Source: a virus
IMG/VR virus record: IMGVR_UViG_3300034069_000432
Coordinates: 9,219 to 73,218 of that record
Length of the DNA stretch: 64,000 nucleotides
Direction: 5' to 3' (one strand)
Part shown: piece by piece, positions 8,609 through 59,180 of the stretch
How the letters are laid out: the number at the start of each line of letters is the position of its first letter
How positions within the stretch are numbered: position 1 is the stretch's first letter
The notes under the pieces: generated by a model
Database searches by the model: none
What the model saw: the letters and a program-made list of their open reading frames with translations, nothing else
Told to the model about the DNA's origin: nothing
Position numbers and translations under genes: made by a program

Positions 8609-9372
8609 TCGTCGTCAATTGCACCCAAGGCTCACCCGAGTGGCTTCAGGGCCGCGCCGGCGTGATCACCGCCAGCATGTTCAGCACCGCCCGCGCCAAG
8701 GTGAACGGGCTTAACGCACAGCAGAGGAAGTACGTAGACGCGATGCTTGCCGGAAAAGGCGAGACAAAGGCGATGGAGTTGGCCGGCTACAAGGCAGGGC
8801 CGAAAGCAGAGGTCGTGCAGCGGGCTTTAGATGGTGAAACCGTAGGCGAGCCATCAAATGCAGCGCTCACCTACGCATTCGAGCTGGCGGTGGAGCGTAT
8901 CGGCGGCACGCCACTGGATAACGGCTTTGAAACATGGCAGATGCGCCGAGGCCACGAGCTGGAGCCTGAGGCTCGCATGGAGCACGAGATCAAGACAGGC
9001 CTAATCGTCACTCAGGTGGGATTGGTTAAAACCGATGATGAGGCGTTCGGCGCGAGTGCCGATGGGTTCATCGGCGAGGACGGGGGCAGCGAATATAAGT
9101 GCTTTCTCGCACCCGACAAGTTGCGCGCCTTCCATATCGACAATGACGCCAGCGAGGTGATCGATCAAGTGCAGGGTTGCATGTGGATCACCGGGCGAAA
9201 GTGGTGGCACATCGGGATGTACTGCCCGCTTCTTAGGCCGGTCGGCAGGCAGCTCTGGCTGCAAGAGTTTAAGCGCGACGACGACTACATCGAAAAGCTT
9301 GAGCAGGACCTCTGGGAATTCAAGCTCCTGGTGGACGGCTACGAGCAAAAGCTCAGGAGTAAGGCAGCATGA
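8605..9372 (+). CDS. YqaJ/lambda-type exonuclease
   Basis: [44 protein letters not shown]. Confidence 0.9.
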
Positions 9373-54567: not shown

Positions 54568-55911
54568 TTACTCCTCGACAGGCGCGTCCGGGGCGCCGGT
54601 AACTGGTGGTTCTTCTGGATCTTCAGGCTCAACTTCGGTGCCGAATTCTTCGATTGCCGCCTCAAGCCCGGGGAGGACATTGCCCTCGACCAGAGTGGTG
54701 GTGGCGGCCTTGCTGAGCGCTTCTTGATTGAACAGCTGCGTATCCGAAAGAGTTTTGATCGTGTCGGCTACCGTCTTTCCGATGGTTGCTCGCTCTGCCG
54801 CTGTAGGCTGCCAGAGAATGCGCCAGTCGTAATAAATCTCAGTTGGCCGCGAGCCCAGCGCAGAACGGATCAGGCACTCATCGAAGATCGACAGCGTCTG
54901 GCTCAAGCCAAGCTTCTGCAGCGCACGCACGTGGTCGTAGTAGTTGCGCAGGTCAGACTCGCCGCTAGACGATAGGCCTGCCGGCGACTGTCCAAGGAAC
55001 CGCACAGCCGGCACATCAAACGCGCCGCAGACCTTCTGGTCGAACCGATCCATGATGTCTGGAAGGTTGCTGAATGAAGCGGACTTGGTCTCATAGTCCT
55101 CCTCCTTGTCCAGCATCAGCATTCCGTTGATGCCCTTACCCGTAGCAGCCAGGCTGAGACGCTGGAGAACGCGGTTGCGATACTCCTGATCGTCCATCTG
55201 CTCCATGAAGTTCGGGATCTTGACCACGTCGACCTTGGCCTCGAAAACCATACTGGCGACGTTTGCGTCTACAGACTCAGATTGCTTTACGGTGTTGGAT
55301 GCGGCCAGCAGGATTGAATCTCCCCAGCCGCGGTCCTGCACGCCCAGTAATTCGTTATCGGGATACGGCGCGCCGATGAACACGATGACGCGCGATGGGT
55401 GGATGCGTAGCTGAGGCGAGCCAGTGGGGATGTACCATTTCGGCTTGTCGAAGTATTCGGATTGCGGATCGGTTTCGGTGTCCCCCGGAGTCAGCTGGCG
55501 CTTGCTCATGACGTTCAGGTACTTGATACCGCCAGCCTGCACGCGCTCTGGATCCAGGCGCAGCGACAGGTCACGATCTCCAGTGCCGATAAAGATCGCA
55601 GCACCGCCAAACAGGCGCGCCTTGGTCATCGCCTCCTTGACTTTGTTCTGGACATTCAGGCGCTTCTCTTCGGCCTCGATAGCCTGTATCTGCTTGCTGT
55701 CCGCCTGCCATGCGCGCCACTCGCGCGTCGCGTCAAACGGCAGAATCTCGACACCCTTGCGCGCCATCCACGACCCACGATAGGCGTTGACCAACTCCTG
55801 ATCCGTGATGAACGGCATATCGAACTGGTTGTGGCTCGCCTTGTCCCGGCCAGTGCCAAGGTTGGCAACCAGGTTGACCAGCTTGTCGTTCAGGTAGCGG
55901 ACTACGCCCAT
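54568..55911 (-). CDS. Portal protein (DUF1073 family)
   Basis: AYRGSWMARKGVEILPFDATREW, ARLFGGAAI, GQSPAGL, DLRNYYD; follows terL. Confidence 0.9.
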   Translation of the reverse strand: MGVVRYLNDKLVNLVANLGTGRDKASHNQFDMPFITDQELVNAYRGSWMARKGVEILPFDATREWRAWQADSKQIQAIEAEEKRLNVQNKVKEAMTKARLFGGAAIFIGTGDRDLSLRLDPERVQAGGIKYLNVMSKRQLTPGDTETDPQSEYFDKPKWYIPTGSPQLRIHPSRVIVFIGAPYPDNELLGVQDRGWGDSILLAASNTVKQSESVDANVASMVFEAKVDVVKIPNFMEQMDDQEYRNRVLQRLSLAATGKGINGMLMLDKEEDYETKSASFSNLPDIMDRFDQKVCGAFDVPAVRFLGQSPAGLSSSGESDLRNYYDHVRALQKLGLSQTLSIFDECLIRSALGSRPTEIYYDWRILWQPTAAERATIGKTVADTIKTLSDTQLFNQEALSKAATTTLVEGNVLPGLEAAIEEFGTEVEPEDPEEPPVTGAPDAPVEE

Positions 55912-58241
55912 TAGGAAACGCCTGCGAGTGAGTATTTGCGCCGCTTCTTGGCGACAGCGAAGTATCGAAATGCGTCGGCGGCGTGCGAGCAGTTATGCAC
56001 GACAGCGCCGTTTGCCAGAGTAAAGTGCTCTACTCCCGGCACTGTCAAGCAGTATACATCCTCAACCACCGATAGTCTTGTCACGCTTTGCACTTCGATA
56101 TGCGGAAGCTTTGCAATTTGCGTGGCAAAACCGTTGCTGGTGGCCATTGTTTCGAACAAGAGCTTCGTATTCGTTCTTGCACCAGTCGCATTTTTTGAGC
56201 TCTCGCTTCCACTTTGTCCAGCCTTGAGAGGTGATAGCGTGCTGCCTATGCCACTCTCTGCCAGCAGGCGAAGCATGCCAGTCGGCAGCAGCTTTTTTTG
56301 CATCATCGCTAAACCAGCCCTTGCCAGCTCGCATAGATTTGACTTTATCAGAAAAACCTTTACCCAAATGCTCAGACGCTGGCAAGCACTCAAGATTGCC
56401 GAGCGAGTTGTTGGTTTTTTCTTCGTCGATGTGGTGTATGTGGCATCCTTCAGGGATTTCGCCAAAGGCGTCGCGCCAAACTGCTCGATGAAGTCTTTCT
56501 CCGCCAGCAGCAAAGTATCGCTCACTCGGGTATATCCGGTAGAGCTTTCCGAGAAAGTACTGGGTTGCTGGGTCAAGCCTGACAGGATCTTGAAACCCTT
56601 CTCTAGGCTTTCTGCGGATTTCCACCCGTTCGCCGTCAAGAATTTGTGCTCCGGCGTACATCTCACTGTACTTCCGTTGGCAAATAGGACCTCCACAAGT
56701 AGGGCATCCTGCTTTGTTTTCCTCGGGTTTTGATACTTCTTCCATCCGCATAGCGTCCACACCTCTCCAGTTTTTGGTAGGTCAACTATACGTTGCATTC
56801 CGTTACGCGTCAGCAGCCGTGTATCGGACGTGAAGCACCAATCGTGGAGAGGCTTATCTTTCCAGCACCCTCTTTTGTCGTCCCACTCTTTCCGATAGCT
56901 CTCCAGCGCCTTGACACCCTGCTCCGTCTTGGCGTCGTCGAACCAGCAGTGCTGAAGTATCTCACGCACAGCTTCGATACCGTCATCGATCCCAAGCTTT
57001 GGCACGACGGTGAACTTCAGCGAGTACTTCTTGCCGTCGATTTCGTAGCCTTCACGCGCAATCTCACGGCGCGTCTTACCGTCGCTGCCAAACTCCCGGT
57101 TATCGATGTCATGCGGGCCCCAGTGCTCGCTGTAGGTGTACCCCCGGTCCTTGATTACTTTCATGTAGTGCCGCAGGCCTTCGCCTGAGTTCTCGTAGAA
57201 GTCGATGACGTGATATTCTTCACCTACCTGGCGCACGAACCAGATCGCAGTCGAGTCGCCAACGCCGATGTCCCAGATCGTGAACACGGGCTGATGCGAG
57301 TTATCCGGCAGCTTGGTTATGCGCTTCTGCTCGTAAATCTTGGCGAACTGGGTCGCGTAGTACGCCCCCTCGACCGACTGCTGGAACGCCTCAGCCGGAA
57401 TCGAGGGGTACTCACGCTTCATGTCGTCGCCAAGCGTCTTCTCCTTGGACCAGTACCAGGCGCGCTGCTCGGGAGTGGTGACCACTCCGTGCTTCTGCTC
57501 AAGCTGGGTGAAGTAGTCCGTCAGCCGCTGCGGCAGCTCAGCCAGCACAGGCTCGGCGTAACCTGCATTGCGCCACCAGGAGAAGAAAAAGAATTTCCAG
57601 TCCAGACGACCCAGCGGCCGGCCGGCTATCTGGTGCTTTTCGGCGCTGTCCGAGTAGTCGAAGAAATACCCAGCGCGCCCCTCGGCCGTCGACTCGATCG
57701 TGATGAAGCAATCGGCCGCCACCGCCTCGAACGCGCCGGTAACGATCTCCCGCGCCTTGTGCGGATACTTTGCGCAGATCTTCCCGAACTCTGAAACGTG
57801 CAGGTAGCGCAGGGTACCGCCCCGGAACGATGTCGAGACGTACAGCGACCCGCCCTTGCTGAAAACCAGCTCGCCGGCACTGTCGTTGCGCGCTGGGTTG
57901 GCTTGCTTGATTTCGTCAGGGAGATTGTCGTATGCGAACTTAACTTTCTCGCGGAACAGCCTGTGAGCGTCAGGCAGTGTATGCGCGATTAGTGCGCACT
58001 TTGCTGATTCGAATAGCGCTGCGTCTAGTTGAATAATGCATTGTTCGGTAGTGAAGCCAAGTTGTCGGGCTTTGAGGATTATGTTTCGGTTGTGCATGCC
58101 GTTGTAATAATCAAGTTGCTCCTGCGTCATCTTGAATCTTACTTTCTTCCCGGCCTTGTCTGTAATTACATACAAGTTTTGCAGGCGCCATAACTTCTGA
58201 CGCAATAGAGCCAACCACTCAGGCTTCACTTGATAACTCAT
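55911..58241 (-). CDS. terL: Terminase large subunit precursor containing an intein
   Basis: IILKARQLGFTT, LHVSEFG, ESTAEG, WDIG, HDW|...|CSHAADAFRY. Confidence 0.95.
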   Translation of the reverse strand: MSYQVKPEWLALLRQKLWRLQNLYVITDKAGKKVRFKMTQEQLDYYNGMHNRNIILKARQLGFTTEQCIIQLDAALFESAKCALIAHTLPDAHRLFREKVKFAYDNLPDEIKQANPARNDSAGELVFSKGGSLYVSTSFRGGTLRYLHVSEFGKICAKYPHKAREIVTGAFEAVAADCFITIESTAEGRAGYFFDYSDSAEKHQIAGRPLGRLDWKFFFFSWWRNAGYAEPVLAELPQRLTDYFTQLEQKHGVVTTPEQRAWYWSKEKTLGDDMKREYPSIPAEAFQQSVEGAYYATQFAKIYEQKRITKLPDNSHQPVFTIWDIGVGDSTAIWFVRQVGEEYHVIDFYENSGEGLRHYMKVIKDRGYTYSEHWGPHDIDNREFGSDGKTRREIAREGYEIDGKKYSLKFTVVPKLGIDDGIEAVREILQHCWFDDAKTEQGVKALESYRKEWDDKRGCWKDKPLHDWCFTSDTRLLTRNGMQRIVDLPKTGEVWTLCGWKKYQNPRKTKQDALLVEVLFANGSTVRCTPEHKFLTANGWKSAESLEKGFKILSGLTQQPSTFSESSTGYTRVSDTLLLAEKDFIEQFGATPLAKSLKDATYTTSTKKKPTTRSAILSACQRLSIWVKVFLIKSNLCELARAGLAMMQKKLLPTGMLRLLAESGIGSTLSPLKAGQSGSESSKNATGARTNTKLLFETMATSNGFATQIAKLPHIEVQSVTRLSVVEDVYCLTVPGVEHFTLANGAVVHNCSHAADAFRYFAVAKKRRKYSLAGVS
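55992..56837 (-). mobile_element. Intein (282 aa) in TerL nuclease motif
   Basis: C1 CFTSDTRLLT, block B TPEHKF, block F VYCLTV, block G VVHN, +1 Cys. Confidence 0.95.
56062..56760 (-). CDS. HNH endonuclease nested in the -1 frame of the intein
   Basis: LHRAVW...IPEGCHIHHIDEEKTNNSLGNLECL...H; C-terminal CDWC...FCHANC. Confidence 0.88.
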   Translation of the reverse strand: MDAMRMEEVSKPEENKAGCPTCGGPICQRKYSEMYAGAQILDGERVEIRRKPREGFQDPVRLDPATQYFLGKLYRIYPSERYFAAGGERLHRAVWRDAFGEIPEGCHIHHIDEEKTNNSLGNLECLPASEHLGKGFSDKVKSMRAGKGWFSDDAKKAAADWHASPAGREWHRQHAITSQGWTKWKRELKKCDWCKNEYEALVRNNGHQQRFCHANCKASAYRSAKRDKTIGG

Positions 58242-58680
58242 CCATCAGCACACCCAAACTAGTTGGCGAGATACTGTGCTCAGTTTGAATCTTGTCGCCA
58301 TACTTCTTCGGCGCGATTTTGGATAGGTACCACTTACGTGCGTCGGCGCGGTTCTTGGCCCAGGTTACTGCGGCAGCGTCTATTGAACCATCAGGCTTCA
58401 TCGGCGGCACTTCGTCCAGGATATCGAAATACTGTTCGGCCAGCGCCTCAGTGGCGACCTCCTTGGACTTCGCGTATTGGGTGCGAAAACTCTCGTGCTT
58501 AGCCAGCCAGCGCAACACTGCGGTCTTCGCAGGCATGTCCTCAGCCTTGCACACGGTCGTCAGCGAATCGCCAGTAGCAAGCCGGTCACAGATCCGCTCA
58601 GCCAGTTCCTCGGTGTAGTCCGAAGGTCGGCCGTGAGGTTTCTTGGGAGTGGTAGGCGCTTTTTTTTTGATTACTGTCAT
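58219..58680 (-). CDS. terS: Terminase small subunit
   Basis: GRPSDYTEELAERICDRLATGDSL, RKWYLSKIAPKKYGD. Confidence 0.93.
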   Translation of the reverse strand: MTVIKKKAPTTPKKPHGRPSDYTEELAERICDRLATGDSLTTVCKAEDMPAKTAVLRWLAKHESFRTQYAKSKEVATEALAEQYFDILDEVPPMKPDGSIDAAAVTWAKNRADARKWYLSKIAPKKYGDKIQTEHSISPTSLGVLMDELSSEA

Positions 58681-59180
58681 GCCGCAACACCCAGATAACG
58701 GTTGATAGCCGCGAGATTTTCTTTCATCTCAGCAACAAGCGCCATTGCAGGATTAGCTCGATCTGGACGAGCTACTGCGAATGCCGTGTAGTCTCTGATG
58801 AATCGCTCTGCTGCGCGCTTGGCGTGGGTGTGCTCTGATTCCTGCCCGAATAGCAAATTGGTCAGGTTTTCGTGTCCGATGCGCCAGATTTCATTCTTTT
58901 CGAATTGATATGCCGCATGCTCACTTTCGAAAGAGCGAACCATAACGCGCACGACAGTTCCGCCTTCGTCCCAGATGGACTGGATGCGTTCAATTTTTGG
59001 AGAAATCATGTAGGAGGCTTTGGCGGCCTCACGCTCATGATGCATGACGCGATCGCCAGTACCCTTGCCGACGTAGAAAACCGAACCATCCCGGGAGTCA
59101 ACAAGGTGGTAGACGTAAAACCCGGTAGCAGGGAATTTTTCTCGAATCTCTTTGGGGAGGATGCGTCGAGTGAGTGCCAT
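58677..59180 (-). CDS. GIY-YIG (LEM-3-like) nuclease
   Basis: FYVYHLVD...FYVGKG...R, E...LTN. Confidence 0.85.
   Translation of the reverse strand: MALTRRILPKEIREKFPATGFYVYHLVDSRDGSVFYVGKGTGDRVMHHEREAAKASYMISPKIERIQSIWDEGGTVVRVMVRSFESEHAAYQFEKNEIWRIGHENLTNLLFGQESEHTHAKRAAERFIRDYTAFAVARPDRANPAMALVAEMKENLAAINRYLGVAA

Follow-up and report, generated by a model that had tools for sequence, protein, structure and literature searches.

Inteins that keep their endonuclease in another frame, or on the other strand, have been described in actinobacteriophages as non-canonical (Gosselin, Arsenault and Gogarten, bioRxiv 10.1101/2025.01.02.630785). The intein considered here lies in the large terminase gene (TerL) of a virus, within a stretch of 64,000 nucleotides (nt) of IMG/VR record IMGVR_UViG_3300034069_000432 (positions 9,219 to 73,218; the whole stretch is called the window hereafter), and holds in its -1 frame an open reading frame (ORF) for an HNH-type homing endonuclease, referred to below simply as the HNH. 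As in the actinobacteriophage inteins, the splicing domain and extein share one frame, the endonuclease ORF occupies another and the host frame stays open; TerL is a frequent host gene there as well, and the origin proposed for them is a mini-intein invaded by a free-standing endonuclease gene. The enzymes differ, however: the out-of-frame and antisense cases of that study are EndoVII-like, LAGLIDADG or VSR-like, its same-strand out-of-frame case being an endonuclease VII-like enzyme, whereas HNH enzymes were found only in frame, and neither promoter, nor ribosome-binding site (RBS), nor start codon is discussed there.

An out-of-frame HNH has also been reported in the DNA methylase gene of the mycobacteriophage ShiLan (Arsenault et al., Genes 2025, PMC11855218). 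It too lies inside a stop-free host ORF, and the paper asks how such hidden HNHs are translated; unlike our intein, that locus has no splicing domain, no RBS was found there and leaderless GTG initiation was proposed, whereas a conserved Shine-Dalgarno (SD) motif, an ATG and a promoter-like element can be identified in the present family. A further comparison is offered by the dnaX intein of cyanobacteria, whose +2 ORF encodes a LAGLIDADG endonuclease (Phillips et al., bioRxiv 10.64898/2026.09.14.751524). It is widely distributed, with an out-of-frame endonuclease under purifying selection and putative SD motifs before its start; it differs in residing in a cellular gene and in the class of its enzyme, and the passages searched mention neither an embedded promoter nor a synonymous-site test. 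The out-of-frame layout is known from preprints of 2025-26 for other nucleases, and the expression signals appear to be unreported; our literature search turned up neither a -1-frame HNH_3 family of TerL inteins nor an embedded promoter. Independent expression of an endonuclease, from its own promoter or promoters and RBS, is reportedly the case for I-TevI of the T4 td intron and for mobE of Aeh1 nrd, the latter said to have been described by Gibb and Edgell in 2007. These two ORFs occupy non-coding loops of introns or the space between the halves of a split gene, whereas here the promoter, leader, RBS and 81% of the ORF would be superimposed on translated intein codons.

We consider it quite probable that the HNH is a self-contained gene, written over the intein in its -1 frame, with a promoter, an RBS and a start codon of its own. 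This reading builds on what can be seen directly at these loci, namely the frames, the conservation of the start codon and SD motif, the selection acting on each frame and a promoter-like consensus conserved at synonymous sites. The HNH would be made by ordinary internal initiation at ATG 56751, behind the SD-like GGAGAGGT (56768-56761), most likely on its own transcript from a sigma-70-type promoter in intein codons 9-18 with a leader of ~25-30 nt. For TerL, ribosomes would stay in the zero frame and read through a stop-free, structureless linker of ~150 residues, after which the Hint domain would excise itself to leave an active terminase. The sequence G GGT TTC, proposed in the original prediction as a possible frameshift site, would instead mark the place at which the intein took up a formerly free-standing, ancestral HNH gene (start M-DPI...).

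Two reading frames across one intein

The intein (Table 1) carries the motifs of class 1 (Hint) inteins, with Cys469, TPEH and VVHN followed by Cys, and Intein_splicing is the sole Pfam match in its zero frame (E = 2.1e-12). AlphaFold2 (AF2), run with family alignments, models the zero-frame product with a predicted local distance difference test score (pLDDT) of 97-98 over residues 1-88 and 94-98 over residues 250-282; the intein presumably splices. Linker residues 92-241 have a pLDDT of 33-60, and this region apparently needs only to be translatable. In the -1 frame, the ORF at 56760-56062 matches HNH_3 (PF13392; Pfam E = 1.4e-14) and PHROG 15471, HNH endonuclease (E = 4e-27), and spans ~81% of the intein. 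The first 51 HNH codons, counted from ATG 56751, overlap the N-terminal splicing domain, whilst at the 3' end of the ORF (56062-56120, minus strand) the last ~10 codons and TGA overlap the beginning of the C-terminal splicing region; across the family, the distance from the HNH stop to the intein end is 37-103 nt, and mostly 67-76 nt. The HNH model has a mean pLDDT of 84, rising above 90 in the core. A Foldseek search of this model against the PDB returned nothing at E<=0.001, the top match being a weak one to I-HmuI (1u3e; E = 0.067). The catalytic His/Asn (checked in 57 sequences) and the Cys ligands of the HNH are invariant, and the enzyme presumably homes.

Searching with the zero-frame intein protein returned ~100 TerL proteins, 28-46% identical, nearly all of which align over >90% of the intein, odd-looking middle included, and none of which has an HNH domain in frame. 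Their exteins belong to different terminase families, which points to one mobile element at a homologous ...HDW insertion site. A search for longer homologues of the HNH found no in-frame fused relatives, which is weak evidence. Related loci were taken from the best 80 of 315 IMG/VR contigs plus two contigs of metagenome-assembled genomes (MAGs; L081, L082), giving a comparison set of 71 distinct intein sequences including that of the window, from some 60 independent lineages (61 clusters at 85% nt identity), of which 70 sequences were stacked for site-by-site conservation. The family phages are uncultured and probably infect Gram-negative hosts. The scan of MAG contigs also turned up L083-L160, which hold other inteins and were set aside; none had an HNH match except L107, where the match is weak, in frame and outside the family.

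The same arrangement recurs at every locus: the zero frame runs without a stop over 262-290 codons in all 71, and all 71 carry, in the -1 frame, an HNH homologue (44-61% identical) that begins at intein nt offset 239. An ORF in another frame, an open host frame and selection on both are thus found at 71 of 71 loci. Where the other frame codes, ~2.3-2.4 stops would be expected per frame under a null in which codons are resampled with extein codon usage, so that a frame would stay open with a probability of ~0.05-0.07 per sequence; since both are open in essentially all 71 loci, selection must keep both open. A within-gene synonymous permutation was rejected as a null, being too lenient (probability 0.13-0.25) because its codon pool is already shaped by the overlap.

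The two frames are under different pressures in the middle of the intein. Read in the HNH frame, wobble positions there have an entropy of 1.45-1.55 bits, against 0.67-0.93 at positions 1 and 2, and, at a nt identity of 58%, median amino acid identity is 57% when the DNA is read in the HNH frame but 31% when it is read in the zero frame; across the linker, the HNH frame is therefore the selected one. Across the 51-codon overlap with the splicing domain, both frames are selected. From codon 29 onward several zero-frame third positions are invariant without a zero-frame reason: codons 44 and 47 have a third-base T in 70 of 70 sequences, which yields the invariant Cys16 and Cys19 of the HNH, and codon 54 has a third-base C in 68 of 70, which yields Arg26.

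A promoter-like element beneath the splicing domain

A second block of constrained synonymous sites lies upstream of ATG 56751, in intein codons 9-18, where the -1 frame is often closed by stops. Within 55800-58400, a promoter scan returned one match only, CTGACG-17-TATAGT at 56813-56785 (minus strand), agreeing with TTGACA/TATAAT at 9 of 12 positions across a 17-bp spacer and having the sequence make-up of a sigma-70-type promoter. In the family, the -35 hexamer matches at 5/6 positions or better in 61 of 71 loci and the -10 hexamer in 50 of 71, the most common combination being 5/6 + 5/6. The scan finds its match at the same offset in 56 of 71 loci, over a background of 2.6e-4 per position (49 matches elsewhere across all loci). 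Synonymous choice goes the same way: Leu9 is TTG in 57 of 71, as against 16.5% TTG among extein Leu codons, and Ile17 is ATA in 58 of 71, as against 16.5% in exteins. We infer that this embedded promoter would fire. Among listed sequencing runs, none of RNA contains 55900-58300, and those of DNA that do all belong to one plant-metagenome study; one of these may be the run from which the window derives.

Several points weigh against that view. The window -35 matches at only 4/6 positions (CTGACG), and 15 of 71 relatives fall short of the scan thresholds. Synonymous sites are conserved in the spacer too (family consensus CGTTACGGAACG...); a plain promoter has no need of this, and part of the block's conservation could reflect some other function at the DNA or RNA level. 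Perhaps, then, there is no functional internal promoter, the HNH being translated through its SD and ATG from the late TerL mRNA, with the TTGAC...ATAAT block serving another purpose. For this alternative speak the spacer, conserved as strongly as the hexamers, the weak window -35 and the failing loci just mentioned, and the fact that a consensus match is no proof of function. We nonetheless regard it as unlikely, if by no means negligible, considering that -35, 17-nt spacer, -10, SD and ATG stand in canonical order and spacing within 90 nt, that each element is held by non-preferred synonymous codons, that we found neither a conserved RNA structure nor an open alternative frame in the block, and that in three of four distant out-of-frame HNH inteins (those of the isolated phages below) the HNH start is closely preceded by a promoter-like match.

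The 17-nt spacer (56791-56807, minus strand; family consensus CGTTACGGAACGTGTCA) is an observation in its own right, as its synonymous sites are conserved as strongly as those of the hexamers: Arg11 is CGT in 63 of 70, codon 12 ends in C in 65 of 70 and Gly13 is GGA in 64 of 70. It could be an operator or other DNA-level signal. Around the promoter, SD and ATG, RNAalifold found no consensus pairs in the 70 stacked sequences. A fold sequestering the SD was considered and dropped: within a long mRNA, GACCUACC can pair with the SD in the window sequence alone, and the pairing is not conserved. Nor does another ORF account for the spacer, the -1 frame having stops in many members including the window, and the +1 frame in the family consensus; an antisense ORF under the spacer extends, in the window, into non-homologous extein.

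Returning to an HNH with its own promoter, it is interesting to consider that the first ~90 nt of the Hint coding sequence could be triple-purpose, encoding the catalytic N-terminal strands, acting as a working promoter, leader and RBS, and starting a Zn-knuckle extension of the HNH, with the HNH expressed on its own schedule and the spacer serving as its operator; this fuller scheme falls slightly short of an even bet. If true, HNH timing would be independent of the late terminase gene, for example early, via host RNA polymerase. Regardless of its details, the family would provide a natural example of dense coding, in which the same 90 bases carry signals for transcription and translation as well as two protein frames. 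Not until 2025-26 were homing endonucleases recognised that lie out of frame in inteins and other inserts, and the literature on them states their expression as an open question; this family offers a concrete, testable answer, in which promoter, RBS and start codon would all be kept by synonymous sites within an essential splicing domain that is itself translated.

Start codon, ribosome-binding site and the junction

Positions below are counted from the junction, the point at the first G of G GGT TTC where similarity to free-standing HNH genes begins. The original prediction had noticed an SD-like stretch 9 nt before an in-frame ATG at 56751, and both are there (Table 1). An ATG stands at -153 (56751 in the window) in 64 of 71 loci; the others, in which the next zero-frame codon is not TGY/TGG, have ATG, GTG or TTG at -150 to -138. 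An extra locus, L173, has GTG at -153 in place of ATG. In the zero frame, this ATG is made of the last base of codon 29 and the TG of Cys30. Codon 29 ends in A in 70 of 70 stacked sequences, against a background third-position A of 0.25, whilst its residue varies between S, P, R, L, Q, I, E, A and V; an invariant A across nine residues argues that ATG 56751 is under direct selection. Just upstream, in codons 18-28, zero-frame third positions vary freely (1.2-1.9 bits) apart from that of Glu25, whose GAG forms the SD; constraint on synonymous sites sets in precisely at this ATG. The -1 frame is open from -138 to the junction in 71 of 71, as against a chance of ~0.07 per sequence under extein codon usage, with the nearest upstream stop 141-444 nt before the junction.

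The SD motif follows the same pattern. GAGGT occurs within 20 nt upstream of ATG 56751 in 52 of 71 loci, and when candidate starts are compared by the presence of an SD-like 4-mer at -16..-5 from each, the -153 ATG (56751) has one in 54 of 71, the -63 ATG (56661) in 2 of 71 and the -27 GTG in 14 of 71. The -27 position was rejected as a start, as V, L or M is found there, including the non-start CTG, and it is best read as an internal residue. ATG 56751 is thus presumably the start used for the HNH. Three observations weigh against it: the SD-to-ATG spacing, 9-10 nt, is towards the upper limit of what is usual, HNH residues 1-30 are modelled with low confidence (pLDDT 47-64), and the N-terminal extension of 51 residues is not ancestral, given that the free-standing homologues have their start at the junction.

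Could translation begin mainly at the second ATG (56661, Met31), so that the HNH would be folded from its very N-terminus, leaving the upstream ATG unused or minor? The original prediction had also pointed to GGAAG before this codon, which does exist (56675-56671, 9 nt before ATG 56661-56659) and, with an SD-like motif in only 2 of 71 loci, is not a conserved SD. The site itself is ATG in 65 and GTG in 5 of 71, both of them start codons, AF2 confidence climbs from about residue 31, where a beta-hairpin (31-47) begins, and free-standing homologues have nothing upstream of the junction. Yet in the 36-90 nt before it, invariant zero-frame third bases supply the HNH frame with ATG, Cys, Cys and Arg codons, and as Cys16, Cys19 and Arg26 lie upstream of ATG 56661, translation must begin before them; moreover, a -1-frame stop between -138 and -63 occurs in 0 of 71 loci, and Val in five loci fits an internal hydrophobic residue just as well. 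A main start at Met31 is therefore improbable; it is most likely an internal residue, and possibly a minor start.

Initiation at ATG 56751 can also be set against programmed -1 frameshifting on G GGT TTC, which would give a TerL(N)-intein(N)-HNH fusion. The original prediction had left these two routes side by side and proposed heptamer versus RBS conservation as a check; with an SD-like 4-mer in 54 of 71 loci (and the ATG in 64) as against the heptamer in 8, the comparison favours the internal start and leaves frameshifting very improbable. It was right, all the same, that G GGT TTC at 56598-56592 is an X XXY YYZ heptamer in the zero-frame register, that HNH-like sequence begins exactly there, as alignment with free-standing homologues confirms, and that no strong hairpin follows. 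The heptamer's position at the junction and a -1 frame open across it are what frameshifting has in its favour. However, other relatives have GGGTTCN, GGGTACN, GAATACN, TTATACA and similar at this position, and at no other is a heptamer conserved. The 129 nt from the heptamer on fold with z = -1.04 (28 of 200 shuffles as good), giving no stimulatory structure, and the predicted fold at the junction pairs the heptamer itself. A shift here would also render superfluous the 51 upstream -1-frame codons, open and selected, with their conserved ATG and SD: the HNH frame has a start of its own. GGG-TTY encodes the conserved Gly-Phe/Tyr of the HNH, and G GGT TTC is a by-product of the HNH Gly-Phe codons at the junction.

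Finally, the HNH frame might be a relic that is no longer expressed, left by a domain once in frame or by an inserted gene now dead, or its offset might be a sequencing or assembly artefact. Both are hardly credible: homing endonucleases commonly decay after fixation, and gene callers annotate only the long TerL ORF, but the offset is shared by 71 distinct contigs of many metagenomes and by isolated phages, all of which have an intact HNH frame with the marks of purifying selection (the wobble position is the most variable, and amino acid identity is 57% at 58% nt identity), and the catalytic His/Asn and Cys ligands are invariant.

Table 1. Features of the TerL intein and its HNH gene, in window coordinates, and TerL genes of isolated phages with inteins of other subfamilies, in contig coordinates.
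Feature	Coordinates	Strand	Intein nt offset	Remarks
-35-like hexamer CTGACG	56808-56813	-	24-29	intein codons 9-10; family consensus TTGACG
-10-like hexamer TATAGT	56785-56790	-	47-52	intein codons 16-18; 17-nt spacer; family consensus GATAAT
Expected transcript start			~59-61	
Shine-Dalgarno-like GGAGAGGT	56761-56768	-	73-77	zero-frame Gly-Glu-Val; 9 nt before ATG
Putative start ATG	56749-56751	-	86	
HNH_3 homing-endonuclease gene	56062-56751	-		-1 frame; 229 aa + TGA, from ATG 56751
CPTC	56695-56706	-		Cys16-x-x-Cys19 of HNH ORF; over zero-frame Asn-Ala-x-Leu-Val
Second in-frame ATG	56659-56661	-		Met31 of HNH (MYAGAQ)
G GGT TTC heptamer	56592-56598	-		GGT = Gly549, TTC = Phe550 of zero frame; Gly52-Phe53 of HNH
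Zero-frame intein linker	56109-56570	-		~residues 90-243; stop-free (0 stops, 71/71); no confident fold
Intein	55992-56837	-		282 codons = TerL residues 469-750; Cys1 TGC 56837, block B TPEH, terminal His-Asn, +1 Cys at 55991
TerL (large terminase) ORF	55911-58241	-		776 aa; zero frame continuous through intein
phiCDHM19 TerL	L165:443-2842			
TJE1 TerL	L162:1077-3263			
Highwayman TerL	L164:888-3170			
LS06-2018-MD07 TerL	L163:1092-3140			

Origin and wider occurrence

Free-standing HNH_3 homologues adjoin terL, usually between terL and the portal gene, as in Pseudomonas phage PAE1 (Orf3), Lactobacillus phage CL2 (gp3) and Salmonella phage Shemara (gp03). They are 30-37% identical to the intein HNH over the HNH core and the C-terminal Cys4 region, and share with it an N-terminal motif, (M)-DPI..T.Q.F.G; unlike it, they are independent genes of ~200 aa, with neither overlap, nor the 51-residue extension, nor its CxxC. 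They begin M-DPI..., and their Met aligns two codons after the heptamer's first G. From such alignments, it looks as though a free-standing HNH gene entered a mini-intein in the -1 frame, and its start later moved 51 codons upstream into the Hint N-lobe. One locus, L022, keeps an ATG at +6 from the junction, the position of the ancestral free-standing start (M-DPI). This ATG and the GTG of L173 would fit an upstream-migrated start that is maintained as a start codon. In Brevundimonas phage Poludnitsa, an unannotated free-standing HNH homologue (L161:2468-3043) fills the gap between the terminase and portal genes; the counterparts in PAE1, CL2 and Shemara are annotated.

The arrangement extends to isolated phages. 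In phiCDHM19, TJE1, Highwayman and LS06-2018-MD07, whose inteins belong to other subfamilies, an intact -1-frame HNH ORF lies within a single GenBank coding sequence, and all four ORFs have their own ATG or GTG and SD near the junction. The promoter-like match that three of the four have just upstream of the HNH is, in phiCDHM19, TTGACA-17-TATAAT (12/12 consensus; L165:2006-2034), just before the ORF. In every case seen, the HNH offset relative to the intein is -1. This suggests that a real nuclease gene escapes annotation pipelines in the terminase genes of phages by the hundred, among them those of phiCDHM19, TJE1 and Highwayman.

Around the window intein, the N-extein DNA of the TerL gene is similar to phage terminase genes, and TerL is flanked by an Sf6-type small terminase gene upstream (58219-58680) and, on the downstream side, by a portal gene (54568-55911). 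A 167-aa ORF (58677-59180, minus strand) immediately preceding the small terminase gene has a LEM-3-like GIY-YIG nuclease domain (Pfam E = 5.9e-15), and is probably a second, free-standing homing-type endonuclease of the packaging module.

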